This document shows positions 8,410 through 22,676 of a DNA stretch of 64,000 bases, piece by piece. Origin of the DNA: Longimicrobiales bacterium (GTDB lineage: Bacteria > Gemmatimonadota > Gemmatimonadetes > Longimicrobiales > Gaopeijiaceae). The stretch covers positions 896,001-960,000 of the forward strand of contig CAXXKM010000001.1 in assembly GCA_963664435.2 (NCBI GenBank), given 5' to 3'. Made by a program: the position numbers and the translations under genes. The notes under the pieces were generated by a model. That model worked only from the letters and a program-made list of their open reading frames with translations, was not told where the DNA came from and searched no databases. How positions within the stretch are numbered: the stretch's first letter is position 1; each line of letters opens with the position of its first letter.

Positions 8410-11400
8410 CTACCGCAACTTGATTCTTCCGCGGACGCGCACCGAATGTTGCGCCCCACTGAGCCCGCTCTCGCGCCGCGTGCCCTCGAGGCGCAGTCCG
8501 ACGCCCGAGCCCAGATCGTAGCGCACGCCGCTCGAGAAGGCGCGCACGCCGCTCTGGCCGAGGTGGAAGCCGCTGTAGGGCGTCCCCTTCAGGCCGACGA
8601 TGCCGTAGGCCACCTCGCCGTCCACGTTGGGACCCATGCCCGGGCCATGGCCGCCCATCGCGTCGGACACCCCGCGCTCCCACAGCTGGTTCACCCCGCT
8701 CATGTGGTCGCCGTACGAAGGCGCCACCCGGATCGAGAGTCCCTGGTCCCGAGCCGCCGGATCGAACATCAGCGTGCCGCCCAGGCCCCATTCCTCGTAG
8801 CCGTCGTGCCCCGAGATGACGAACCGTCCGCGGCCCTCCGCGGTCAGCCCCAGACTGGAGTTCGTGTAGCGGAGCCCACCGCCGACTTCCGCGCTCGCGC
8901 CGTTCACACCGTCGCCGTTGTCGTAGCGCATCCCGCCTTCGAGCAGGAACGCCATCTCGTGCCCGGTGTCGGAGCGGAAGCCCTGTGCCAACTCGAGAGC
9001 CAGCTTGCCGCGCTGCATATCGAGCGTCACCGCCTCGATCCGCTCGGAGCCGTCGACCTTGACTCGGCCGTACCAGCCCTCGGCCTTGACGCGGATGCCG
9101 CTCAGGCCGCTCGAGAACAACTGGTAGCCGGCACCCCCCGCTCCCGTCAGCATGCTGGCGGGGCTGGTGCGGAGCCCTTCCCGTACGTCGTCCACTTCGA
9201 TGTCGCCCCGGCCGAGCCCGGCCGAACCCCAAACCGAGGTGCCGCGCGCGCCGGAGAACCAGGCCAGGTAGGGATGCAGGCTGGTCATGGTGGCGCCGTA
9301 CGTGCCCTTCACCGCGCTGGCGCCGGTCCTGTCGGTGAAGTCGAAGCTGCCTGAGGAGTACGAGCCCGCGACGCCCGCCAGAATGTCCGGCCCCACGCGC
9401 ACGTCCACGCCGACGTGGCCGCTCACCATGTTGCCCTTCCAGTCGACGCCGCTCGCGCCGGGTTCGCCGAGGTGGTGGTACTCGCCCGCGCCCCAGCTCG
9501 CCAACCGGGTGCCCGTGGCGGACTGCTGCGGCGCATCCGTGGCGCCGAAGGGCATCGTAAAGGAGGTGCCGCCGAAGAGCGCGGCCAGACCGGCCTGGTC
9601 GCGCTGGCCGAGGCCGAGTCCGCCCGCGCCCGGCGCGGACAGGCTCGCGGCCATCGACGAGAGCCCGTGCGTCTCCACGCGCCGCTCCATGCCCATCCCG
9701 CTGGCCACAACGTCGACGCGGCTTGCGATCGCCGAAACCGTGCTCGACGTCATCGCTGCCGCCACGTGCGGCAGGACGCGGGTGTTCAGCCGTCCCGTGC
9801 GCTGCACGGGATCGTCGGTCGCGGCCGAAGCGCTCGCCGACGCCGCGCCGGTGCCGGCCCGGTTGATGGCCGACACCCGGTAGTGGCGCACGCTCCCCGG
9901 CAGCAGGCCGGTGTGCGAGAAAATGCTGCCCCTGGAATCGGTGTTGGTCACCAGATCCGTCCACGCGGCGGCGTTCTCCGAGACCTCGATGCGATAGCCC
10001 GTGATGGGGGCGCCGCCATTGTAGGCGGGCGCGACCCAGGCGAGGTCGATCTGCGTGGGCGTGACCGCGGTGGCGACCAGCCCCGTGGGCGCGTCGGGCA
10101 CGGTCGCGTCGGTGGTGGAGCCCGCAACCCGCGACGCATCGCCCGCGCCGATCCGGTTGATCGCCGAAACGCGGTAGTGGCGCGTCGAGGCCGGCGCGAG
10201 CCCGCTGTGCGTATGGACGGTGGCCGTGGTGCGCGTGTTGGCCACCAGATCCTCCCAACTCCTGCCCCCGTCTGCCGACACCTCGATGCGGTAGCCAGTG
10301 ATGCGCGCGCCCCCGTCGTCGGAGGGCGCCTGCCAGGAAAGGTTGATCTGGGAGGTCCCGGCCGCCTCGGCGCTGAGACGCCGCGGCACCCCCGGCAGGG
10401 TCGCGTCGGTGGTCGCACGCGCCGTATTCGAGTAAGGCCCCGGGCCCGCGAGGTTTCTCGCCGCGACCCGGTAGTGCCGCGTGGTCGCGGGCCGCAGGGT
10501 CACGTCGGAGAACGTCGTCGTCGTCGAGTTCGTGTTGCGGCGGATGATGTTCCAGGTCGCGCCCTCGTCGTCGGAAGCCTCGATACGGTAGCCGATGATC
10601 GAAACACCGCCCGTATAGCGGGGCGCGTTCCACGAGAGGTCGATGCGCGAGGTGCCCACCGCCCGCGCCGTCAGCCCGGTCGGGGCTCCGGCAGTATCGA
10701 CGTGCGTAACAGCCCACACCGGGGGCTCCGAGGTGCGCGGCGACCACTCTCCCTCGCCTTCGCGGTTGATGGCCCTGACCTGGTACTGGTACCGGGTCAC
10801 CGGCTGGAGTCCGGTGTGCCTGAACGTGGTCGTCGTCGTCCCGGTGTTTTGCTCGGCGATGGTCCAGTCGTCGTCGGGCGGCCCGAGCACCCGGATGCCG
10901 TAGCCGGTGATGCGCGCCCCTCCGTCGGCTTCCGGCGCATCCCAGGCGAGGAGGATGCCGCTCGGCCCGGTCGCGCGCGCACGCACGTTCTGCGGCCGCC
11001 CGGGAGGCGCTGCATCGGTGGTGCCTTCGGCCACGTTGGAGGGGGGTCCTGCCCTCGCCGGGCCGTTGATCGCGGACACGCGATAGAACCAGGTGGCGGC
11101 GGGACCAAGATTGCTGTCGGTGTGGATGGTGGCCGTGCTGCCGGTGCTGGCCACGTGGATAACCCAGCCGCCGACTCCGTTGGCGGACCTCTCGATGCGG
11201 TAGCCGGTAATCGGGCTGCCGCCGTCGTCTGCCGGGACCGACCAGGTAAGGAGAAGCTGGTCGGTTCTCGTCGCGCCCGGAACCACCCTGAGTCCTGTGG
11301 GCGCGCTCGGAGCGGAGGTTTCGGTGGTCTCCCGGGCGGTACTCGACCACGCGCCCAGGCCCGCCGCGCTCCTCGCCGCGACGCGGTAGTTGCGGGTGGT

Positions 11401-12717
11401 GTTGGGCCTGAGGCCACCGTGAAAGTAGGTCGTGGTCACGGCGTTGGTGTCGGCCAGGTGCCGCCAGTCGCCGGTTTCGGTGCGCGATTCGATGCGGTAG
11501 CCGGTGATCCGCCCCGAGCCGCTGGAGGAGGGGGCGCGCCAACTCAACCCGATGGCCGAGTCCCCGCGGGCCTGCGCCGTAAACGACCGGGGCGCGTCCG
11601 GCAGGACAGCCTCCGTGGTGGCGAAGGCGACGTTCGAGGGATCTCCCGTCCCGTTGAAATTGATCGCCGACACCCTGTAGTGGCGCGTGACGCCCCCGGT
11701 GAGGCGCGTGTGGCGGTAGACGGTGTCGGGATGCCGGCGCTCCAGAGGGTCCCAGGAATCACCGCCGTCCGCCGACACCTCGATCAGGTATCCGGTAATC
11801 TCGCGCCCGCGATTCGAACTCGGCTCATCCCACTCAAGCTCGATCGCGTCAGGGCCGTCGGCCACCGCAGCGAGGTTGCGCGGCTCTCCGGGAACGCCGG
11901 TGCGCGCCTCCCCGGTGACGTTTCTGACCTGCCTGTCGAAACCGAACGCGAGATTGCCGACCAGGTCCCGAAGCGCGTTGGTGCCGCGGTCGTCGTAGAA
12001 CACCCGAACCGCGTCGACCGTGTCGACGGGGCTGGCCAGAAGCAGGAACACATCGCGGGTGGCCACTTCAACCCCGGACACGGTCTTGACGTTGAACGCG
12101 TTGCCCCTGAGGAAGGATACCTGGAAGTCGCTGGCCGAGGGGACGAAACCTTCATCGAGGTCTTCGTCGAAGGCGATGACGACTTCGTCGCCGTTGACCT
12201 TCGCGTCGGAGACTTCGGGGCCCTTCGTGTCCACGGGAATGTCGAGGGAATTCGACGCAAGATTCCCATCCCCCGAGGCGCTGTCCTGCGCTACGTTCGC
12301 AGGGATGTGGACGAACACGCGACCACTATAGGCCTCCGGCATCCTCAGCGTGACGGAAAATCTTCTGCCGGAGTCGCTGCCCGGTGGAACGGCCTCCGCG
12401 CATCCCGTATTCGGATACGGGCAGGTGATGTTGAGGGCGTCGGCCGTGAAGCCTTTCACGGGCCGTGAGAAAAGGATGGTGATCTGCGCACTGTCCTGTC
12501 TGGGCGGGCTGATCCAGCTCCATGAAATCGAGGTCCTGGGGGGGACGGCCACGTCGCTCGCCGCCGCCGGCGGTTCCGCGGCCGATCGGACCACCTCGCG
12601 CGACCCGCCCGGCGTTGGCTCCTCAGCCCGCGCGCCCGCGGAAGGAAGCAGGAAGGCGCAGACCACTGCGGCGGCCCGGAGGGAACGGGCAGGAAGGCCA
12701 GGCTGGTTCGGAATCAT
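8410..12717 (-). CDS. Fibronectin type III repeat autotransporter/adhesin (Ig-like + SwmB-like repeat + 7 FN3 + barrel)
   Basis: Seven 'PxxPxxL...LxWxxP...GG.ITGYRIE...YRVSAIN..G' repeats and a C-terminal barrel 'GMRYDNGDG'. Start at ATG 12717 with a GGAG RBS and signal peptide. Confidence 0.88.
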   Translation of the reverse strand: MIPNQPGLPARSLRAAAVVCAFLLPSAGARAEEPTPGGSREVVRSAAEPPAAASDVAVPPRTSISWSWISPPRQDSAQITILFSRPVKGFTADALNITCPYPNTGCAEAVPPGSDSGRRFSVTLRMPEAYSGRVFVHIPANVAQDSASGDGNLASNSLDIPVDTKGPEVSDAKVNGDEVVIAFDEDLDEGFVPSASDFQVSFLRGNAFNVKTVSGVEVATRDVFLLLASPVDTVDAVRVFYDDRGTNALRDLVGNLAFGFDRQVRNVTGEARTGVPGEPRNLAAVADGPDAIELEWDEPSSNRGREITGYLIEVSADGGDSWDPLERRHPDTVYRHTRLTGGVTRHYRVSAINFNGTGDPSNVAFATTEAVLPDAPRSFTAQARGDSAIGLSWRAPSSSGSGRITGYRIESRTETGDWRHLADTNAVTTTYFHGGLRPNTTRNYRVAARSAAGLGAWSSTARETTETSAPSAPTGLRVVPGATRTDQLLLTWSVPADDGGSPITGYRIERSANGVGGWVIHVASTGSTATIHTDSNLGPAATWFYRVSAINGPARAGPPSNVAEGTTDAAPPGRPQNVRARATGPSGILLAWDAPEADGGARITGYGIRVLGPPDDDWTIAEQNTGTTTTTFRHTGLQPVTRYQYQVRAINREGEGEWSPRTSEPPVWAVTHVDTAGAPTGLTARAVGTSRIDLSWNAPRYTGGVSIIGYRIEASDDEGATWNIIRRNTNSTTTTFSDVTLRPATTRHYRVAARNLAGPGPYSNTARATTDATLPGVPRRLSAEAAGTSQINLSWQAPSDDGGARITGYRIEVSADGGRSWEDLVANTRTTATVHTHSGLAPASTRHYRVSAINRIGAGDASRVAGSTTDATVPDAPTGLVATAVTPTQIDLAWVAPAYNGGAPITGYRIEVSENAAAWTDLVTNTDSRGSIFSHTGLLPGSVRHYRVSAINRAGTGAASASASAATDDPVQRTGRLNTRVLPHVAAAMTSSTVSAIASRVDVVASGMGMERRVETHGLSSMAASLSAPGAGGLGLGQRDQAGLAALFGGTSFTMPFGATDAPQQSATGTRLASWGAGEYHHLGEPGASGVDWKGNMVSGHVGVDVRVGPDILAGVAGSYSSGSFDFTDRTGASAVKGTYGATMTSLHPYLAWFSGARGTSVWGSAGLGRGDIEVDDVREGLRTSPASMLTGAGGAGYQLFSSGLSGIRVKAEGWYGRVKVDGSERIEAVTLDMQRGKLALELAQGFRSDTGHEMAFLLEGGMRYDNGDGVNGASAEVGGGLRYTNSSLGLTAEGRGRFVISGHDGYEEWGLGGTLMFDPAARDQGLSIRVAPSYGDHMSGVNQLWERGVSDAMGGHGPGMGPNVDGEVAYGIVGLKGTPYSGFHLGQSGVRAFSSGVRYDLGSGVGLRLEGTRRESGLSGAQHSVRVRGRIKLR

Positions 12718-12746
12718 CGTGTCGTCTCCGCGTTGGTAAACGAGCG

Positions 12747-12844: not shown

Positions 12845-15800
12845 TTAGCTCGATGGCTTGGCATCGACGGATACCACGGTACCCTGGCGCTCCTCGGTCC
12901 AGGTGTCGGTGCTGCCGTCCTCGCCCTCGTCAACACCCTCCTGCCGCGCGTCGACGCGTACCTTGATGGCCTTGTTGAGGTCGGCTTCAGTGATCGGAAC
13001 CGGTACCCCACCGAGCGTGCTCCAGGTTGCGGTGAAGCCGTCAGCGACCGGGAGGGTCCACGCCCTGGTTTCGCTGCCGAGAGTGGCAGGTGTTCCACCA
13101 GCGGCGACGAGCCATAAGGTGTTGCCTGCGGACGCGGCGTCGACCTCTACCAGAATCCGGAACTGCGAGTTGCCATTCGTCACAGCGTTCCAGCTGACCT
13201 CGATGTCGTCGTCGTCCCGTACGGCGGCCACACCGCTGGCCGACGGATCGATTTCGTCAACCGTGACCGCAGCCGAGGTGTCGGCGTACGGGACAGCCGG
13301 GGTCGAAGGCGTGATCTCTTCAGCGTTGGCAATGACCCGAACCATGAACTCGCCATCGCTCGGATTCGGGATCGTGAAGCTGCCCGGCACGTCCTCGAGT
13401 GGAGTACCAGCCTGCACCTGGGTTGGCGAGGTGACATCCGTCCAGGTATCACCATCATCCACGGAGGTCTGGATCGTGTACGTGGCGTCGTTATACCCAT
13501 CGGGCGTGTGCTCGGCGTTGGCCGTGTACATGACCGAGATGGTGGTAGCCCAGGCCCTCGTGGACTCATCGACATCGTCGGTGGCGTCGTCGTCGTCAAC
13601 GCGCATCCGCGCCGCTCTGACGTTCCGGGCGCCAGCAGTCATCGCCCTGATCGTACCGAAGTCATAAGCCTGACCCGGAGCGACGCTCACCCTCTGGTTG
13701 TCGTTCGGGTAGCCGAAGACGTGGTTCGCCGCCGACGCTTCGATGTCATAGGTGCCGAACGGTACGCTGAGCACGAAGGTGCCTCTGGCAGTGCTGGTGC
13801 TGGAGACATCGTCCCCGGCTGCGCCCGGAACCACGTTCGTGGCCGTGACCGTAACGCCACCCATTGCGGTGTTGTCCGGACCGCGCACCCTGCCCGAAAT
13901 CGTCGCGTGCAGGAAGCCGGTGAAGTTGATACCCGAGACCGCCGATCCGGCGTGGGCCGGCACGGACAGCTCCGCAGGCGCGAAGCTCATGCCGTCCTTC
14001 GACACGGTCACCGCAGCACTCTCGCCCAGGTCTTTGGCGGTGATGGTCGCGGTGTAGGTGCCGTCGGCGCCCGTCACGAGCTTGCCTGCGTTCGCACCGG
14101 TCGTGGCTGCGTTGGTCGGGGCCGCGCCGTCCACCATGATCTCGGCACCGGCGATCGGCGCGCCGCTGCCGGATGCGGTGACCGTACCGCTGATCGAGGC
14201 GGTCGCGCCTACGCCCGAAAGATCGACGTCTGCGTTGATACGGTCGTTCGCAGCGAATGGCACGATCTCCCGCGTCTTCCCGCTTCCTTCATGGGCGGTC
14301 TCAACGAAGACGCTGTTCGTGTGCGTCACGTTGCCAATCTTGCGGCTCGCCACGTTGGGCACGTACTCCGCGATGTAGCGGCCGTGCGCGTCGGTCATCG
14401 CCTCAACCCCGTTCACGTTCACGGTCACGTCGGGAACGGGGAATTCCTCCGCGTCCCTCACGTAGCCGTAGACGGTGGTCGTCGCCGGCGTGATGTCGAG
14501 TTCAACATCCCCTGCGAGCGGGCTGAAGGCGCTGCCGACCATGGCGGTGGCGCCCTTCGGACCCATCCTCGCCCGCCAGCCGTCCGTCACGCTGGCTTCG
14601 TAGACGCCGGCAGCGATGTTGTTGAAGGCGAACTGGTGGGTCTCGTCGAGCACTTCATTGCCCTTGGAGGTCTCACCCGGCCCCCGGACCGGCTTCTCCG
14701 TGGTGGTGGCGGACTCCTCGTCACCCGCGAGATTCTTGCCCTCGACGGGGCTCAGGCTGACCGAAATGCCGGGTACGAACGTGGGTCCACCATCATCCTC
14801 CGGACCCATCTTGAAGCCGTCATCGTTGGCGCTCTCGCTGCTCCTGAGGACCTGGTTCTTCCAGATCAGGCCCGTCACCGAGTGCGTGCTCACGTAGGCG
14901 AACGACGAGCAATCGCCGTGGTCCTGCGGCTTGGTGGCCTGTAGCGGGCATAGCGAAACCGTGTGGCTGTAGCCGCCCTGCGCTCCGAAGTGGCCGCCAG
15001 TGATTCCGTTGGTTTCCGTGCCGGCGTAGGCGGCCAGCTCATCGGCATGCCCGCCCTCATCGAGGAGCATGATGCTCTGGTCGCTGTTGTCGGCCTTCGA
15101 CGCCTGGGCAATCACGTTCATGTCGGCCGGCACGTTGTTGAAGACCCATGCACCGCCGTCACCATTGTTGCGCGGCTCGCTGATGCTGTCCGCAGCCGTG
15201 AACGGGCGCGAGCGCCCGCTGTCGTCGATATAGCGGACCTCGACGTCGACCTTGCGATCGGCACCCTTTCCGTCCATCTCGTCGCCGCCGATGATGTTTC
15301 CGGTGTAGCCTTCGACCTGGTCGAGCTCGTGGTGGACGTAGACCTTGAGCGTCTGGGTCGTGAACGCCGCCTCGAGCATGCCGGCGTCCTGCGTGCCGGC
15401 CAGCATGAGGCCGGTGTGCGTGTACTCGACCGGCTGAGCCGAGTAGTTCTCGCCCCCGTCCAGCGCGTTGTCCTGGTCGTCGGCGAGCGCGACGGTGAAG
15501 GTCGCCGGCAGGTCGTCGGCTCCGACGGTAGTCATGAACGCCGCGTTGCCCATGTCGTCCAGCATCTCCGGCGCGCCGTCGACCGCTTCGTCGCCGGACA
15601 TGACGCTGATCGCCCAGCCGGCGAGCGCCTCGCCGCCACCGTACTCGGTGGTGACAGTGGCGCCGCTGACGGATGCGTCGACGTTCAGGTTGACGATGTC
15701 GTTGGAGTTTCCGGCCGCGGTCGCAAACATCTGCGGATCCCAGGACACTGCGGTCCTGGCGTCCTCACCGTAATCGTAGCCTTCGGCCGATACGCCCGCT

Positions 15801-17503
15801 GTCACCATGTTCCCGTCGGTGCGTGCGCGCGCGACCTTGATCGTGACGGAGCCGTCGTCGTCGGTGGTGCCGCTGCCGACCATGCCGTCGCCCGTCCCGT
15901 AGAGCGTGACTGTGGCGCCGGGAACCGCGTCGCCCATGTCGTCGCCGTTCCTCAGCGAGACCGTGAAGTTGACCGTTGTGTGCGTGATGTCGAACGGAAT
16001 GGCCTGCGAAGCCGGCTCGCCGACACCGAGGTCGACGGAGTAGCCTTCGCCCGGTCCGCCGTACGCGAGGTCGGCGGCCGCGAGCGCCGCGGCGACATCG
16101 GCGTTGATGAGCACGACCAGCTGGTAGGGGCCGGCGCGCAGACCCGTGAAGGAGAACGCACCGGTCTCGTCCGTGGCGCCAAGCCGCTGCTCGTTGACGC
16201 CCGGGCCCACCAGCGCCACCGGAATGCCGGCGTGCGCCACCGAATGCTCGCCCTCGTCGTACATGTCGTTCTTGGTCGCCTCGTCGATGAACACCATGCC
16301 CGAGACGCTCGCGGTGCGCGCGTGCGCGCCCTCGAAATTCACGATCGCCGACTCGTCGTCGCCCAGCGTCACGTCCGTGCTCATCGACTCGAACACGTAG
16401 GCGTCGCTCTCGACCGCGATCGAGACCGTGTAGTCGCCGGCCGCCAGGCCCGCGAAGGCGTACTGGCCGCCCGCGTCGGTCATCGTCGTGCGGCTCTCGT
16501 CGCCGCCCGCCAGCGTCACCGCGATGTCGCCGAGTCCCATGCCCTCGACGCTCACTCCGCCCGCGATGCCGGAGGTGCGGAGCAGGACGCCGGTGAACGA
16601 CACCGTGCCGGTCTCGTCGAGATCCACGCTCACGTCCTGCGACGTGGCCGCGAACTCGTAGTCGCGCGGGTCGAAGTCCGCGATCTCGACCCTGTAGTCG
16701 CCGGGGCGAAGTTCCTCGAACCGGAACATGCCATCGCCGTCGGTCATCATCGTGTAGCTCTCGTCGGCCGGACCGCCGCTCAGGGTGACCGTAATGCCGG
16801 CAAGCCCTTCGCCTTCGATGATCACCTGCCCCTCGACCGCGGAGGTGCGGATGAAGTGGCCCGTGAAGTCGGCCTGGCCGACATCGCCCACGTCGACCTG
16901 GATCTCGAGGCTCACCGTCTCGAAGGACACGTCCTCGGGGAAGTCGCTGATGGTGACCGTGTAGGTGCCCGCGCGGAGCCCGGTGAAGGCGAAGCCGCCG
17001 CTCATGTCGGTCTCCATGGTCTCGCCCATGGCGTGCTCGCCGCCGAGCGTGACCGTCACGCCAGCCAGCGTCTCGGGCTGGCCGTCGCCGCCGCTCATCA
17101 TGGCGTCGGCCGCAACCACGTTGCCGACCACCGCGGAGGAGCGGATGTACTCGCCGGCGAAGTTGAGTTGGACGTTCTGACCATCGGTCGCGATGGTCGC
17201 GGACTGCGTCACCTGGGCGAACGTCGCATCCTCGGGGAAGCCGCTGATGGTGACCGTGTAGGTCCCGGCTTCCACGCCCGAGAAGGCGAAGCTGCCACCC
17301 GACCCGGTCGTCGTGGTCGCACCCGACGACAGGGTGGCGGCGATGCCGCTGGCGGCCGTGCCTTCAATCGTCACCGTCCCGGAGATGGTTCCCACGGGAG
17401 TGGGCGGCGGGGGCGGCTCCACGGGCGGCGGAGTGCCCTCGTCGCAGGCGGTGAAGGTCAGGGCCATCAGCGTTGCTGCGGCGAAGAGTTTGAGTCGGTT
17501 CAT
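12845..17503 (-). CDS. Large acidic surface lipoprotein with carboxypeptidase-regulatory-like/Cna-B beta-sandwich repeats
   Basis: Lipobox 'LTFTAC' and Pro-rich linker. Multiple 'G.I.VTL.G....T.TD..G.F.F.GL.AG.Y.V' repeats. AGGAGG RBS; 1552 aa. Confidence 0.85.
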   Translation of the reverse strand: MNRLKLFAAATLMALTFTACDEGTPPPVEPPPPPTPVGTISGTVTIEGTAASGIAATLSSGATTTTGSGGSFAFSGVEAGTYTVTISGFPEDATFAQVTQSATIATDGQNVQLNFAGEYIRSSAVVGNVVAADAMMSGGDGQPETLAGVTVTLGGEHAMGETMETDMSGGFAFTGLRAGTYTVTISDFPEDVSFETVSLEIQVDVGDVGQADFTGHFIRTSAVEGQVIIEGEGLAGITVTLSGGPADESYTMMTDGDGMFRFEELRPGDYRVEIADFDPRDYEFAATSQDVSVDLDETGTVSFTGVLLRTSGIAGGVSVEGMGLGDIAVTLAGGDESRTTMTDAGGQYAFAGLAAGDYTVSIAVESDAYVFESMSTDVTLGDDESAIVNFEGAHARTASVSGMVFIDEATKNDMYDEGEHSVAHAGIPVALVGPGVNEQRLGATDETGAFSFTGLRAGPYQLVVLINADVAAALAAADLAYGGPGEGYSVDLGVGEPASQAIPFDITHTTVNFTVSLRNGDDMGDAVPGATVTLYGTGDGMVGSGTTDDDGSVTIKVARARTDGNMVTAGVSAEGYDYGEDARTAVSWDPQMFATAAGNSNDIVNLNVDASVSGATVTTEYGGGEALAGWAISVMSGDEAVDGAPEMLDDMGNAAFMTTVGADDLPATFTVALADDQDNALDGGENYSAQPVEYTHTGLMLAGTQDAGMLEAAFTTQTLKVYVHHELDQVEGYTGNIIGGDEMDGKGADRKVDVEVRYIDDSGRSRPFTAADSISEPRNNGDGGAWVFNNVPADMNVIAQASKADNSDQSIMLLDEGGHADELAAYAGTETNGITGGHFGAQGGYSHTVSLCPLQATKPQDHGDCSSFAYVSTHSVTGLIWKNQVLRSSESANDDGFKMGPEDDGGPTFVPGISVSLSPVEGKNLAGDEESATTTEKPVRGPGETSKGNEVLDETHQFAFNNIAAGVYEASVTDGWRARMGPKGATAMVGSAFSPLAGDVELDITPATTTVYGYVRDAEEFPVPDVTVNVNGVEAMTDAHGRYIAEYVPNVASRKIGNVTHTNSVFVETAHEGSGKTREIVPFAANDRINADVDLSGVGATASISGTVTASGSGAPIAGAEIMVDGAAPTNAATTGANAGKLVTGADGTYTATITAKDLGESAAVTVSKDGMSFAPAELSVPAHAGSAVSGINFTGFLHATISGRVRGPDNTAMGGVTVTATNVVPGAAGDDVSSTSTARGTFVLSVPFGTYDIEASAANHVFGYPNDNQRVSVAPGQAYDFGTIRAMTAGARNVRAARMRVDDDDATDDVDESTRAWATTISVMYTANAEHTPDGYNDATYTIQTSVDDGDTWTDVTSPTQVQAGTPLEDVPGSFTIPNPSDGEFMVRVIANAEEITPSTPAVPYADTSAAVTVDEIDPSASGVAAVRDDDDIEVSWNAVTNGNSQFRILVEVDAASAGNTLWLVAAGGTPATLGSETRAWTLPVADGFTATWSTLGGVPVPITEADLNKAIKVRVDARQEGVDEGEDGSTDTWTEERQGTVVSVDAKPSS

Positions 17504-17573
17504 GGAACCTCCTGAGTGGTGGAAAGGAAAACCGGCCTGGAGGGGCTGGAGAGAGTCGCGTGCCTTTGGATAG

Positions 17574-17589
17574 GCAAAGGCGGTGCCAA
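17574..17589 (-). promoter_or_regulatory. Sigma-54 (-24/-12) promoter for the surface lipoprotein gene
   Basis: The minus strand reads TTGGCACCGCCTTTGC, an exact TGGCAC-N5-TTGC match about 70 nt upstream of ATG 17503. Confidence 0.8.
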
Positions 17590-17852
17590 TTTCAGAACCT
17601 TCATAATTGGCAACCGGTTACGCACTATCGCCCCGCTCTGTGGCATCCGGCGGACCCCACGGATTCTCGGATTATCGGCGACGGCCACTGTTTTCTGAAT
17701 GCGACTAAAACGATAAGATTGTTGGCGATATCGCCCGTTTATCAGAAATGTGTCTCAAATATCACTCCGATCGCCCCTGTCTCGTCGTATACGACGTTAT
17801 CGATATCCGCAATGCCAGAAGCGACTGTAGGACGATCCGTCACGGCCCTAAA

Positions 17853-17879
17853 TTGACAAGATCGCTGATCGTACATACT
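17853..17879 (+). promoter_or_regulatory. Possible sigma-70 promoter for the AraC-like/dTnpB operon
   Basis: Perfect TTGACA at 17853-17858. The best -10 (CATACT) has a non-canonical 15-nt spacer. Confidence 0.35.
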
Positions 17880-17962
17880 GGTATATACGAAGACTCACCA
17901 TGGGGGCAAAGGAATGGGGCGCCACGGTTGGCAGCGCGCCTCTTCACGGCGGGATCGCAGGG

Positions 17963-18826
17963 ATGGAGTCGAAACAACTGGTCTGCATGCTGTATTGCAG
18001 CGACGGCGAACTGAGGGACCGACTGGAGCGCGTGCTCGCCGGCGTCGCAGTTCAGCGAGTGCGTTCGAGAGAGGCACTCCTGGCGCCGCCCGCGATCGTT
18101 TGCGCGACGGTATACGGAACCACCACCTGCTCCGATGACGAAGTCGAGTGGTTGCGGTCGGCCTTCAGGCCTCTGAGCCCGCCATGCGTCGTGGTGGCTG
18201 ACCTCTCCGTAGACTGCCTGCGACGACTGGACCCACTCCGCTCCTGCAGGCTGAAGGTCGTGTGGACCGCCGAGGCCGAGGACCGCCTCGGTGAAGTCCT
18301 CGGGGAGTTCGGCAGGGTGAGTTGGGGTCCGATGTGGCGTCTCGGCCTGGGGCTGGTGTCGGAGCCTTCCCTGAAGCCTTTCGTAAAGGAGACGATCCGC
18401 CGGGCGTGCGGCCTGCGCAACGATCCCGCCGGCACTCCGTTCGTCCCCGAGAAGTCCGTCGGAAAGCTGGCGCGCGAGGTCGGCGTCGCCACGTCGACGC
18501 TTCGGCTTTGCTGGAGGGAGGAAGTTCCGCTCCGGTGCAGCCTCAAGGAATTCCTGAGCTGGGCGGTCACCCTCTGGGGCACGCGCGCGCGTGCACTTGA
18601 GGAATGGACTCCCCTCGCCAAACGGCTGGGACTCCAGCGCCGCTCGCTCGAGAGAAACTTCCTTCGGACGGCCGGATGTACCCTCGCCGAGGCGGCCGAG
18701 GACTCGGAGCGGGTGGTCGGGCGATTCAATGAGTGGGTCGATTCCGTGTGGGAGCCCCACTCCGGCGACGGGTCCGGGGCGTATGATCGGGTTCCGACGC
18801 AGGCGCCCCGCGAGGAGATGCCTTGA
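17963..18826 (+). CDS. Divergent AraC-like double-HTH regulator with a degenerate receiver-like N-terminus
   Basis: HTH1 'SVGKLAREVGVATSTLRLCW' and HTH2 'WTPLAKRLGLQRRSLERNFLRTAGCT' with an AraC-like F-x-R-x-x-G-x-T ending. Start 17963 or 17900. Confidence 0.65.
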   Translation: MESKQLVCMLYCSDGELRDRLERVLAGVAVQRVRSREALLAPPAIVCATVYGTTTCSDDEVEWLRSAFRPLSPPCVVVADLSVDCLRRLDPLRSCRLKVVWTAEAEDRLGEVLGEFGRVSWGPMWRLGLGLVSEPSLKPFVKETIRRACGLRNDPAGTPFVPEKSVGKLAREVGVATSTLRLCWREEVPLRCSLKEFLSWAVTLWGTRARALEEWTPLAKRLGLQRRSLERNFLRTAGCTLAEAAEDSERVVGRFNEWVDSVWEPHSGDGSGAYDRVPTQAPREEMP

Positions 18827-19869
18827 CGGTGGCCGGATCGACCGCCCGGCGTTACGTCGGGTGGCGGTGCAGGCTCTACCCGAGCCCCGCGCAGGATGAA
18901 GCGCTGCTCCGGTGCAGGAACGGCCTGCGCGAACTCGCCAACGCCCTGCTCGCCACCTCCCAGCTCAGGTACGGGGAGACCGGACGGCGCCTGTCCCTGA
19001 TCGAGATGCGCGCCTTCGCGCGGGACTGGAAGCGGCAGCCGAAGCACCGGGAATTCCCCGCCAGCGCCAGCTACCGCGTCGCCGCCGATCTCGACCGGAC
19101 CTTCCGCACCTGGTTCAGCAGGCCGGGAAAACGCGGGCGCAGAGGATTTCCCCGGATCAAGAGCATCGGACGGGAGCCCGGCATCTACTTCAGCAACCAG
19201 GGGATCCGCTTCGACGGCAGCCGGGTGTGGCTGCCCAGGTTCGGGTCCGTGCGCTGGAAGGGCGGAAAGCTGCCCTCGGGGAGGCTGCCGGGTCCGTCCG
19301 GACGCAAGACCCTCGGTCTGCTCTCGGGGCGGGCCTGGCTCGATGCGGGAAACCGGTGGATGCTGTCGTGCCTGTTCGAGTGCGCGCCGCTCACCCCCGT
19401 CGAACCGAGAACGGAGAAGGCGGCAGTCCGTCAGAACGGCCGCGAAATCAGTGTGTCGGTGGACGGGGAGGCCCTCCACGTGATCCGCGAGAGCAGGACG
19501 CTCAGGAACGCGAGGCGCCGCCTGGCAAGGCTCGAGCGGCGGCTGGAGCGATGCGAATTCGGGTCAGAAGGCCGAAAGCGCACCCTTGCCCTCATGCGCA
19601 ACCAGGCACGCAGGGTTCGGAACCACCAGGCGGATCTGCAGCACAAGGCCACGACCGGCGTCGTGCATGAGGCCCGCGAGATCGAAGTGGAAGGCGCGAG
19701 CAGCGAACTGCTGCGTCAGCTCGAATACAAGGCGGAGTGGCACCGCCGCCGACTGAAGGTACGGCGAGGCCCGCCGGAACCGGGGACTGGCAAGCCCCGA
19801 CGCGCGCGGAGACCGGGGAGCCGGTCGCAGAAACGCGAATCGCGGACGCGAAGGCCGAAAGCTCTGTAG
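18823..19869 (+). CDS. tnpB: Nuclease-dead, C-terminally truncated TnpB (IS200/IS605 OrfB) derivative, TldR-like
   Basis: TnpB hallmarks: 'RLYPSPAQ', 'GFPRIKS', 'VWLPRFGSVRW', 'RWMLS', 'RLARLERRL', 'DLQHKATT' and 'LLRQLEYKAEW'. RuvC-I 'GIDLG' is replaced by 'AVRQNG'; no CxxC Zn finger or 'DRDxNAA'. TTG start with GAGGAG RBS overlaps the upstream TGA. Confidence 0.85.
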   Translation: MTVAGSTARRYVGWRCRLYPSPAQDEALLRCRNGLRELANALLATSQLRYGETGRRLSLIEMRAFARDWKRQPKHREFPASASYRVAADLDRTFRTWFSRPGKRGRRGFPRIKSIGREPGIYFSNQGIRFDGSRVWLPRFGSVRWKGGKLPSGRLPGPSGRKTLGLLSGRAWLDAGNRWMLSCLFECAPLTPVEPRTEKAAVRQNGREISVSVDGEALHVIRESRTLRNARRRLARLERRLERCEFGSEGRKRTLALMRNQARRVRNHQADLQHKATTGVVHEAREIEVEGASSELLRQLEYKAEWHRRRLKVRRGPPEPGTGKPRRARRPGSRSQKRESRTRRPKAL

Positions 19870-19890
19870 CCGTCTGCGAAGGCCGGAACG
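19760..19890 (+). ncRNA. Putative TnpB omega-RNA (reRNA) scaffold overlapping the 3' end of the dTnpB ORF; guide expected just downstream
   Basis: Paired elements: CGGCG/CGCCG (19762-76), CGGGG/CCCCG (19781-99), ACG-CGCG-C-GGAGA...GAAA-CGCG-AA (19800-39) enclosing GACCGG/CCGGTC, and terminal stem TCGCGGACG/CGTCTGCGA (19840-79). The layout matches IS605-type omega-RNAs as I recall them. Boundaries are approximate. Confidence 0.65.
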
Positions 19891-20312
19891 AATCAGGGAG
19901 CAGGACCTCGCCAGGTACGGGACAGCAGGTGATATCTGATCCGTGAGCGATAATATCGGCAACTATGATGATATCATGGAGACAGAGAGAGTCGAGGCAA
20001 CACCGGCCCCCACGCAAGAGGTAGCCGATTGCACTGCGATCTATCAGTTATATTTCAAGGTAGTATGCTGATATTGGGATGATAACGCGGATGCATGCAC
20101 CCTGAAGCTCCATCCGCAGTCCCCAGGCCGCTTTGTACGCTCAATCCACACTTCCACCGCGAACCCTGCCGAGACTAGGGGAGGTGCCCTTGAATCCCGG
20201 TCGACAATTTATGACGTTTGGATGATAGTTCGGGTGCATTTGCGATGTTTTGGCGATCACTGGTTGTGCCCGAGGACGCGACGCCGGGCGAGGATCCGGG
20301 GAGGACGGGCCG

Positions 20313-22676
20313 GTGACTAAGCACCCGGACGCGTTGAGAATAGAGGCGCTGCAGGAGCGCGTCTCGAGGCTGTGCGGCGCAATCCTGCGCATCAACGCGA
20401 GCCTGGATCTTGAGACGGTCCTGCAGGAAGTCGTAGACAGCGCCCGGGCCCTGACCGGCGCCCGCTATGGCCTGATTGCGACCGTCGACGACGCGGGCGA
20501 ACCCGGGCCGTACCTCGTCTCCGGCCTGACGCCGGAGCAGCTGCGGCAGCTTCAGGAGTGGGAGGACGGGCTCCGGGTCTTCGAGCACTTCCGGGACCTT
20601 CCGGGTGCGGTGCGGATCGGAGACCTGTCGACCTGGCTCCGTTCGCTCGGTTTCTCGCCGGTCGCGCTTCCATCGAAGACGCTGCAGGGCACGCCGATCC
20701 GTCATCGGGGCATCTACGCCGGAAGTTTCTTTATCGGCGGAAAGGACGGGGAAGGCGAGTTCACCCGCGAGGACGAAGAGGTTCTCGTCCTGCTGGCGTC
20801 GCAGGCAGCGACGGCGATCGCCAATGCCCGCAACTTCCGGGACGAACAGCGGGCGCGGGCGAAGGTGGAGACCCTCGTCGACACGTCGCCGGTCGGCGTG
20901 GTGGTCCTGGACGCCAGAACCGGAAGTCTGGTGTCGATCAACCGGGAGGCGAAGCGGATCGTCCGAGGCCTGCGGATGCCGGACGGGTCAACGATGGAGC
21001 TTCTGGAATTGGTTACGTGCCGGCGCGGCGACGGGCGCGAGTTCGCCTTGAAGGAATACCCGCTGGCGCGCGAGCTGAGCAGCGCCGAGACGCTGCGTGC
21101 CGAGGAGATCGAACTTTCGGTCCCCGATGGACGCAGCGTTAAGACGCTGATAAACGTGACGCCGATCCATGAGCCCGACGGTCGCGTCGAGTCCGTTGTG
21201 GTCACCATGCAGGATATGGCGCCGTTTGAGGAGCTCGAGCGAATGCGGACCGAGTTCCTCGGGATCGTGAGTCACGAGTTGCGCGCGCCGCTTGCCGCCA
21301 TCAAGGGCTCGGCGGCCACAGTGCTCGCCGGCTCCGGGCGCGTCGCTCGTGCCGAGATGCTGCAGTTCTTCCGCATCATCGACGAGCACGCCGACAACAT
21401 GAGCGTTTTGATGGGCGACCTGCTCGATGCGGGACGCATCGCGACGGGCACATTGTCCATCTCGCCCGAGCCCTCGGATGTCGGGGCGCTGATCGACCAG
21501 GCGCGGACCACCTTCCTGAACGCCGGCGGCCGACACAGCGTGCGGGTCGACCTGCCTCCGGACCTGCCGAAGGTGATGGTCGACCGGCAGCGCATCGTAC
21601 AGGTCCTCAACAACCTCCTCTCCAACGCGGCGAGATACTCCCGGACGTCGTCGCCCATAGAGGTCAACGCGCGGCTCGATGGCGTCCATGTCTCGATCAC
21701 GGTATCCGACCATGGCAGAGGCATCGCGCCCGAGCGGCTGGCGCACTTGTTCGCCAAGCGGGCCGGCGCGGGCGAGGGCACGCGCGGTCTGGCGACGGGC
21801 CTGGGCCTCGCCATCTGCAAGGGACTGGTAGAGGCGCACGGGGGCCGCATCCGGGCTCGGAGCGAAGGAGAGGGTCGAGGGGCGCGATTCACGTTCACCG
21901 TCCCTACCGCCGAAGAGGTCGGCGGCGACATCGCGGCTTCGGATTCCTCCTCGCAGGAACGCTCCCGTCCAGGTCCGGACGCGACGCGCATCCTGGTGGT
22001 GGACGACGACCCGCGGACGCTGCTCTACATCCGCGATACGCTCACCACGGCGGGGTATACCGTACTCGAGACGGGCGAGCCTCCGGAACTGGCGCGGGTC
22101 ATTCGCGCGGAGAAGCCCCACCTGGTCCTGCTCGACCTGATGTTGCCCGGGACCGACGGCATCAAGCTGATGCAACAGGTTCCCGACCTGGCCGACATGC
22201 CGGTCATCTTCATCTCCGCCTACGGGCGGGACGAGACGATCGCAAAGGCCCTCGACGCCGGGGCCGCCGATTACATCGTCAAGCCGTTTTCGGCGACGGA
22301 GTTGACGGCGAGGATCCGGGCGGCGCTGCGCAGGCACGCCGAGCCCGCATCCTTCATGCTGAGTGGGCTGGCCATCGACTACGATCGCCGCCAGGTGACG
22401 CTCGGCGGCCAGCCGCTGGAGCTCACCGCCACCGAATACGAGCTGCTGCGGGTGCTCTCGGCCAACGCCGGGCGCGTGCTGACGTACCGCGCGCTGCTGC
22501 GCAAGGCCTGGGACACCCGCTACCGGAGCTCCGTCGACCCGAAGCTGGTGCATGCCGTTGTGAGGAGGCTCCGCCACAAACTGGGCGAGGACGGCGCTCG
22601 GCCGACCTACATTCTCAACGAGCGAAGGGTAGGCTACCGGATGCCCGCGCCGGACGACCGCGCGAGCGAGCCGTGA
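20313..22676 (+). CDS. Soluble hybrid sensor kinase/response regulator (GAF-PAS-HisKA-HATPase-REC-OmpR winged helix)
   Basis: H-box 'SHELRAPL', N-box 'NNLLSNAARYS', G2 'GLGLAICK', REC 'VVDDD...LLDLMLPG...KPF' and wHTH 'LTATEYELL...RVGY'. GTG start with a GGAGG RBS. Confidence 0.9.
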   Translation: MTKHPDALRIEALQERVSRLCGAILRINASLDLETVLQEVVDSARALTGARYGLIATVDDAGEPGPYLVSGLTPEQLRQLQEWEDGLRVFEHFRDLPGAVRIGDLSTWLRSLGFSPVALPSKTLQGTPIRHRGIYAGSFFIGGKDGEGEFTREDEEVLVLLASQAATAIANARNFRDEQRARAKVETLVDTSPVGVVVLDARTGSLVSINREAKRIVRGLRMPDGSTMELLELVTCRRGDGREFALKEYPLARELSSAETLRAEEIELSVPDGRSVKTLINVTPIHEPDGRVESVVVTMQDMAPFEELERMRTEFLGIVSHELRAPLAAIKGSAATVLAGSGRVARAEMLQFFRIIDEHADNMSVLMGDLLDAGRIATGTLSISPEPSDVGALIDQARTTFLNAGGRHSVRVDLPPDLPKVMVDRQRIVQVLNNLLSNAARYSRTSSPIEVNARLDGVHVSITVSDHGRGIAPERLAHLFAKRAGAGEGTRGLATGLGLAICKGLVEAHGGRIRARSEGEGRGARFTFTVPTAEEVGGDIAASDSSSQERSRPGPDATRILVVDDDPRTLLYIRDTLTTAGYTVLETGEPPELARVIRAEKPHLVLLDLMLPGTDGIKLMQQVPDLADMPVIFISAYGRDETIAKALDAGAADYIVKPFSATELTARIRAALRRHAEPASFMLSGLAIDYDRRQVTLGGQPLELTATEYELLRVLSANAGRVLTYRALLRKAWDTRYRSSVDPKLVHAVVRRLRHKLGEDGARPTYILNERRVGYRMPAPDDRASEP

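Follow-up and report, generated by a model that had tools for sequence, protein, structure and literature searches.

The question raised by this locus is whether the 3' end of a shortened tnpB gene encodes a guide-bearing omega-RNA and, if so, what that RNA is aimed at. The window (the whole stretch of DNA that was analysed, 64,000 nucleotides) holds the gene next to a surface-protein cassette, as follows.

8410 to 12740 (start approximate), minus strand: fibronectin-III repeat outer-membrane protein, 3' of the S gene and part of the cassette
12845 to 17503, minus strand: S gene, 1552-aa surface lipoprotein-like protein with CarboxypepD_reg repeats (Pfam; lipobox by eye)
17574 to 17588, minus strand: sigma-54-type -24/-12 motif of the S gene, 85 nt 5' of the ATG, also present before paralogs
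17900 to 18826, plus strand: HTH gene of AraC-like type, N-terminal fold receiver-like (Pfam HTH_18 match weak, E 0.069)
18823 to 19869, plus strand: truncated nuclease-dead TnpB, clade A, 348 aa (NCBIfam guided_TnpB, E 5.8e-21; structure match)

We consider it likely that the omega-RNA is the guide RNA of a new clade of TldR, an RNA-guided repressor, aimed at surface-protein paralogs, and that one surface-protein cassette probably uses it to silence rival cassettes. Comparison at the sequence level demonstrates a dead enzyme under selection, a scaffold, a fixed guide, a matching site and the escape of the linked paralogs. An assembly artefact is ruled out by a single sequenced DNA contig that covers 17276-22023 with 34 differences.

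The structural model of the TnpB (pLDDT 81) has ISDra2 TnpB as its best match (E 7.8e-20, TM 0.67); its folded part ends near residue 316, and the low-confidence residues 318-348 are read through the RNA. Compared with intact relatives, the RuvC-I Asp has become Arg203, the lid region has lost about 19 residues, and there is neither a zinc finger nor RuvC-III; RuvC-II Glu290 is retained, yet it is not invariant. The protein is thus a TnpB homolog with loss of at least two RuvC catalytic residues, as TldRs are, and lacks the intact DED triad and zinc finger of an active IS200/IS605 TnpB. Codon comparison demonstrates purifying selection on the dead TnpB, with a median dN/dS of 0.25 (range 0.17-0.45; 120 pairs, 16 genes). 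No tnpA accompanies it, again as in TldRs: the genome that holds the locus, G000 (96% complete), gave 0 Y1_Tnp matches, the control search responding in 6/14 genomes.

The same truncation was found in close homologs and in 15 of the 18 other genus genomes; outside the genus, the search for a dead TnpB gave matches, distant and of intact type, in 1/18 other family members and none in 24 further members of the order. Records of relatives belong to Gemmatimonadota, Longimicrobiales, Candidatus Palauibacter and some Gammaproteobacteria, and the lineage may live in sponges (compare PMC10469786). Fragments and frameshifted copies also occur. A further dead TnpB group (L212, L214; 33% identity), from other Gemmatimonadota, carries a cysteine-rich insertion, and its RNA was detected weakly, in L214 only.

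The RNA elements at the end of the gene are:

19757 to 19888 (5' end approximate), plus strand: omega-RNA scaffold (alignment A2, pair counts, covariance model R1)
19762 to 19776, plus strand: 5' hairpin (19762-19766 / 19772-19776), 98.7% of cells paired, covariation absent
19780 to 19783, plus strand: 5' strand of a proposed pseudoknot, putative partner 19883-19886 (-6 to -3 before the guide)
19803 to 19837, plus strand: core helix CGCG/CGCG around a GACCG/CGGTC hairpin, 100% paired, G-C to A-U in 6/30 rows
19840 to 19879, plus strand: terminal stem-loop with the stop codon inside, outer 5 pairs 95.3% paired, inner part clade-dependent
19889 to 19898, plus strand: guide CGAATCAGGG, 8 nt invariant, 10 nt matching the target

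The scaffold overlaps the last 37 codons of the dead tnpB and lies, as expected of a TldR, 3' of the gene. The motifs and helices described in the original prediction were all found where it had placed them: ACG-CGCG-C-GGAGA at 19800-19812, the hairpin arms GACCG (19811-19815) and CGGTC (19822-19826), the CGCG arms (19803-19806 / 19834-19837), and the terminal stem, whose arms (19840-19848 / 19871-19879) enclose the TAG stop (19867-19869). These helices alone prove little because the DNA has 68% G+C, the region folds no better than its shuffles (z 0.57; 143 of 200 shuffles fold equally well) and Rfam gave 0 matches to it at gathering score.

It is the homologs that settle the matter in favour of a real omega-RNA at this locus. 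In an alignment of 30 RNAs from three protein clades, picked among distinct copies, 98.4% of 669 cells are paired, compared with 25.7-37.2% in slid controls. One pair of the CGCG helix is altered on both sides, from G-C to A-U, in 6/30 rows, and since all six belong to clade C this is probably one event; single-sided changes have turned three further pairs into G-U and one G-U pair into G-C. The proposed pseudoknot (19780-19783/19883-19886) is 97.5% paired, with G-C to G-U in 6/30 rows and 3 cells broken. Covariation is real but thin, most pairs never varying, and the support that pairing and covariation give to the scaffold is modest, there being one event and a structure derived from these same sequences; the compensatory helix claimed earlier holds for the double-changed CGCG pair and for no other. 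Moreover, the median dS falls from 0.43 in the body of tnpB to 0.06 in the tail overlapping the RNA.

A covariance model made from the aligned RNAs matches the 3' end of a catalytically intact TnpB outside its training set (L210; 49 bits, E 1.4e-10), and L211 gave the same result; the covariance-model check suggested with the prediction was thus empty with Rfam and positive with the home-built model, and the IS605-type assignment is supported, the RNA being of IS200/IS605 type. L210 is the nearest intact TnpB found, a single copy directly 3' of a lexA-like gene in a Steroidobacteraceae record.

The guide was placed at 19889-19898 because the clades diverge after GGAA, conservation decays and the spacing of the proposed pseudoknot would then be ISDra2-like; in ISDra2, according to part of PMC10097598, positions -5 to -3 pair with -103 to -105. 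GGAA is kept in clades B and C, which differ directly after it, and the 28 distinct RNA ends of clade A, which were gathered with an anchor placed upstream, read GGAA-CGAATCAG and then decay, with the first 8 guide letters kept in 28/28 (19882-19894 being fixed by the search anchor in the per-position table). Conservation stops at 19896-19899, the AGCAGGACC part is not conserved, and 3' of the guide identity drops to 30-60%. The start falls inside the range 19886-19892 foreseen for it, and the check then proposed, by loss of conservation, leaves about 10 nt that would act as guide; the true boundary may be as much as 3 nt further 5', the scaffold ending in GAA and the target matching GAA too. 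Guide positions 9-10 are mismatched in 5/28 RNAs with no matching target change, and the target reads GGA in G010. A guide differing with each insertion, the habit of active IS200/IS605 elements, is not what these 28 RNAs with a common first 8 nt present.

Two other placements were rejected: a boundary after TCAG (guide from 19897), TCAG being within the target-matching part and clades B and C diverging right after GGAA, and a long guide of 16-20 nt, the genomic match never going beyond 10 nt after TGAA. Seeds of 9 nt from 19893-19899 gave scattered matches only against the genome.

The candidate target lies outside the window and 3' of a promoter, in agreement with the expectation that it would be elsewhere in the genome: TTGAA followed by the guide is found on the antisense strand within the 5' leader of a surface-lipoprotein (S) gene of sigma-54 type. 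Among 313 seven-letter seed matches in G000, 2 follow TGAA, and both reach 10 nt; they belong to a locus that is duplicated on contig C2, one match in each copy, before a paralog of the window's S gene (12845-17503). The 12-mer is present in 14/19 genus genomes, its reversed control in 0/19, with a chance expectation per genome of about 0.2 (0.02 for the 14-mer); these genomes are kin, so the counts are of non-independent samples. All 15 matches sit in S leaders, which amount to about 0.02% of the genome, at 21-34 nt 5' of the S start, and in 14 of the 15 an exact sigma-54-type motif stands about 65-80 nt upstream of the site, by the -24/-12 consensus. The conserved guide therefore matches a leader, as TldR guides match promoters or leaders.

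The targeted S is one conserved core gene, with an upstream flank common to 13/14 loci; clade-A loci fall into 8 unrelated flank groups among 26. When 71 S loci were examined, the site was found in 15, and in 0/20 leaders of the window's S type; the leader of the window's own S gene is without it. Between S paralogs, identity is 87-97% at the N-terminus and 11-55% in the C-terminal, distal part; an Atlas search of S had a best score of 0.87, which serves as a lead only. Five genomes have no match: G006, G008 and G015 (67% completeness) are without dead TnpB, and G017 and G018 carry clade A, no core-type S gene being found in the assemblies of these two; G065 also has clade A without the site, and there one S match and no core-type S gene were found. 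The targeted core S gene of G000 has a stop at codon 3, which, like the clade-A genomes without the site, counts against the repressor reading.

The putative TAM, TGAA, is common to the targets of two clades and was read off those targets; the nearest intact relative is single-copy, and the intact relatives, single copies with one site between lexA and the next gene, were uninformative for it. In the TldR properties that were compared by sequence, the locus agrees throughout, an independent TAM excepted.

We propose that the dead TnpB would bind the omega-RNA, recognise TGAA and open a short R-loop in the core S leader, presenting a roadblock to RNA polymerase; the core S-F operon would be turned down, and the cassette's own S paralog, with its different outer part, would be made. 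The system may have originated when an IS605-like element inserted into an S leader and the flank was captured as guide, an origin suggested because the divergent layout of S and tnpB fits it. That same layout, together with the existence of fragments and frameshifted copies and with the rule that each IS200/IS605 guide starts as an insertion-site flank (in part of 10.64898/2026.09.22.753285), would also suit a fossil flank, the match being an old insertion site of an IS605-like element in the S leader and the protein and RNA now doing something else or nothing. We regard this as improbable: just 8-10 matching letters are kept and the adjoining letters of the former flank have been lost, dN/dS is 0.25, and cassette-linked S genes are consistently without sites.

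A second guide bears on the repressor reading. G000 also has a clade-B dead TnpB (53% identical) at the end of another S-F operon, and the only match to its guide CCGACTCAA that follows ATGAA (1 found, 0.03 expected) lies at the start codon of the S gene in the window:

17490 to 17503, minus strand: predicted clade-B target, ATGAA plus CCGACTCAA, at the S start codon

Clade B would use the same TGAA on the other strand and hit core and A-type S genes at their start codon, its own S being recoded: the site is intact in 8/14 core and 11/20 A-type S genes, and the S genes of clade-B cassettes are recoded and without the B site in 6/6. DNA is favoured over mRNA as the target because TGAA precedes the matches of both guides even though these are on opposite strands. 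Alternatively, the RNA 3' end could act on mRNA and not on DNA, as an antisense small RNA that is complementary to the S leader over 13 nt and has the dead TnpB for a chaperone; in its favour, the clade-A guide is complementary to the mRNA directly upstream of the Shine-Dalgarno region. We give this very little credence, for the clade-B guide runs in the sense of the mRNA and is unable to pair with it, yet has the 5' TGAA, and the fold is that of a DNA-binding TnpB.

At position 2, guides and S starts of clade B may have changed together, which is suggestive only. G009 has an orphan RNA with the guide CAGACTTAA and a core S start reading ATGAA-CAGACTCAA; three guides of more distant genomes read CAGACTCAA, as does one S start, in a genome whose guide has C there. 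The guide of G061 begins CC and the S start CA; those of G062-G064 begin CA, and no S target was found for them.

A CGA-to-TGA stop at S codon 3, the rest of the frame being open, is found in the core S of 5/14 genomes and in 2/20 A-type S genes. The loci are C2:13008 and C2:54964 in G000 and the S genes in L133, L134, L137, L143, L150 and L160. The change falls on clade-B protospacer position 2, on the strand that an R-loop would displace; core stops were seen in 4/5 genomes with a CC-type clade-B guide and 1/9 without, these being kin and not independent. A silent C-to-T at protospacer position 1 occurs in 6 A-type S genes. Separately, 3' of the clade-B gene in L205 and L206 the last scaffold letters and the guide are doubled in tandem, short and repeat-like.

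Clade C keeps the zinc finger and has lost the RuvC-I and RuvC-III Asp; tandem whole omega-RNAs stand before S genes, as orphans in G000, G002 and G017. The orphan pair of G000, 215 nt apart (L032:16538-16961; C3:1146540-1146960, minus strand), is just upstream of an S promoter, and in G005 three omega-RNA units surround the clade-C gene (L088:13550-15420). Clade-C guides had no consistent target in their own genomes, and one array guide had no TGAA-flanked match in G000. A degenerate pattern gave 9 matches, of which 3 are S starts in genomes without clade-C RNA and 5 are chance-like; the ninth, of one G000 guide, extends over 9 nt behind ATGAA where a TonB-receptor-like gene begins (G000 C1:893428). 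A protein tree was built from 25 proteins, 2/27 rows having been left out for shortness. It groups A with B (100/100) and unites all dead forms (99/99), with the intact pair, which includes L211, outside; one domestication with stepwise loss would fit this.

More speculatively, and with doubts that outweigh our confidence, one could picture layered RNA-guided dominance among cassettes, in which at least three dead-TnpB clades of one domestication share TGAA, A silencing core S, B silencing core and A-type S, and C carrying further guides in tandem orphan omega-RNAs. Each cassette's own S would be recoded to escape, guides and targets would pursue one another over protospacer positions 1-2, and recurrent C-to-T knockouts at codon 3 would be driven by the R-loop; all this would amount to RNA-programmed surface variation in an uncultured marine lineage.

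The stop of the HTH gene overlaps the tnpB start, so that the two are translationally coupled, and an HTH gene stands 5' of clade-A genes in 23/23 loci with a match; this stable link to non-transposon genes (HTH and S) is a further property of TldRs. In the Atlas, the HTH protein clusters with hypothetical proteins from Gemmatimonadota, of which some have HTH_18, its fold search gave nothing at E<=0.001, and its predicted complex with the dead TnpB scored 0.09; the HTH gene probably regulates the cassette. The coupling to clade A invites the alternative that the complex on its DNA site activates or loops rather than represses, perhaps together with the AraC-like protein, and RNA-guided activation is known for dead Cas12f with sigma-E (in part of PMC13472631). 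Such a role seems to us unlikely: the sites lie 3' of the promoter, either within the transcribed leader or at the start codon, there are HTH paralogs without dead TnpB, clades B and C are without HTH, and no sigma-factor family was found among the neighbour genes of the locus, so the adjacent ECF sigma factor gene typical of a dead Cas12f/TnpB-sigmaE activator is missing.

Repression would fit what is described, in the parts of the papers bearing on them, for known TldRs. Clades linked to fliC, oppF and csrA have been reported, with more expected, and known guides of 9-11 nt and a block of elongation 3' of the start site are given (10.1101/2023.11.30.569447; 10.64898/2026.09.22.753285). The fliC_P-associated TldR (10.1101/2023.11.30.569447) shares with the present locus a dead, C-terminally truncated TnpB, a downstream gRNA, a fixed guide and the lack of tnpA, and is likewise tied to one surface-protein paralog while targeting another with a variable outer part. 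Its target is a sigma-28 -10 box with the TAM GTTAT, whereas here a sigma-54-type lipoprotein leader and the putative TAM TGAA are involved; moreover, the present lineage is another (Gemmatimonadota relatives), there are several repressor clades and guides per genome, and no phage or integrase gene was found among the 38 window ORFs scanned. The oppF-associated TldR (10.64898/2026.09.22.753285) has an equally short guide (9 nt, compared with 8-10 here), a roadblock position 3' of the start site, tuning among paralogs and a degraded lid; in our case the target is a surface lipoprotein, the lid is deleted outright, an HTH gene is coupled and cassettes would target each other.

With ISDra2 TnpB and its omega-RNA (parts of PMC10097598; PDB 8h1j) the locus shares the fold (TM 0.67), the position of the RNA over the gene end, the core stem and the pseudoknot spacing, and it differs by Arg203 in place of the RuvC-I Asp and by the absence of zinc finger, RuvC-III and tnpA. 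RpoE-associated dead TnpB/Cas12f with omega-RNA arrays, as far as described in parts of PMC10691335 and PMC13472631, resembles it in the inactive effector and a nearby HTH gene, and resembles clade C in duplicated whole omega-RNAs with different guides; unlike those systems, the present locus has no sigma factor, an IS605-type TnpB origin and targets 3' of promoters. Full-text searches of the literature found no account of this TldR clade, whose proteins may sit unnamed in published TldR lists; the taxon words had 0 matches in 5 supplementary files of PMC10705468 and 1 of PMC10691335, in which accessions may stand without taxon names.

This would be a new case of natural RNA-guided gene repression and, next to the three TldR clades characterised so far with one guide each, a further, independent domestication. 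It would be among the most reduced TldR forms, with about 310 folded residues, no lid, no zinc finger and a guide of 8-10 nt. If true, mutual targeting of sister repressors would turn TldR from a one-to-one switch into a dominance hierarchy among paralogs, and the natural series, from zinc finger kept to lost and from one guide to tandem guides, would illustrate guide repertoires arising without CRISPR spacer acquisition.

Several further observations concern the surroundings. AT-rich stretches with repeated GATATC/ATATCG words flank the HTH-tnpB unit on both sides (window 17720-17810 and 19930-19980) and are possibly regulator sites. A GAF-PAS histidine kinase fused to receiver and OmpR-type DNA-binding domains is encoded 3' of the guide (window 20250-22676), and its paralogs stand 3' of several other clade-A loci. 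G006 and G008, complete and without dead TnpB, have the most S paralogs, with 21 and 9 matches as compared with 1-5 elsewhere at a different cut-off. Inverted near-identical duplicates occur at contig ends of G000 (C2:1-14255 / C2:53717-67971 and C3:1130000-1145000 / C3:1779179-1794162), and the S genes of the C2 duplicates have the promoter and first 1.25 kb in common and then differ; these could be invertible S cassettes or an assembly artefact, and G010 has a similar inverted pair. Finally, 17 tRNA genes are arranged in an array at C2:689401-692178 of G000.
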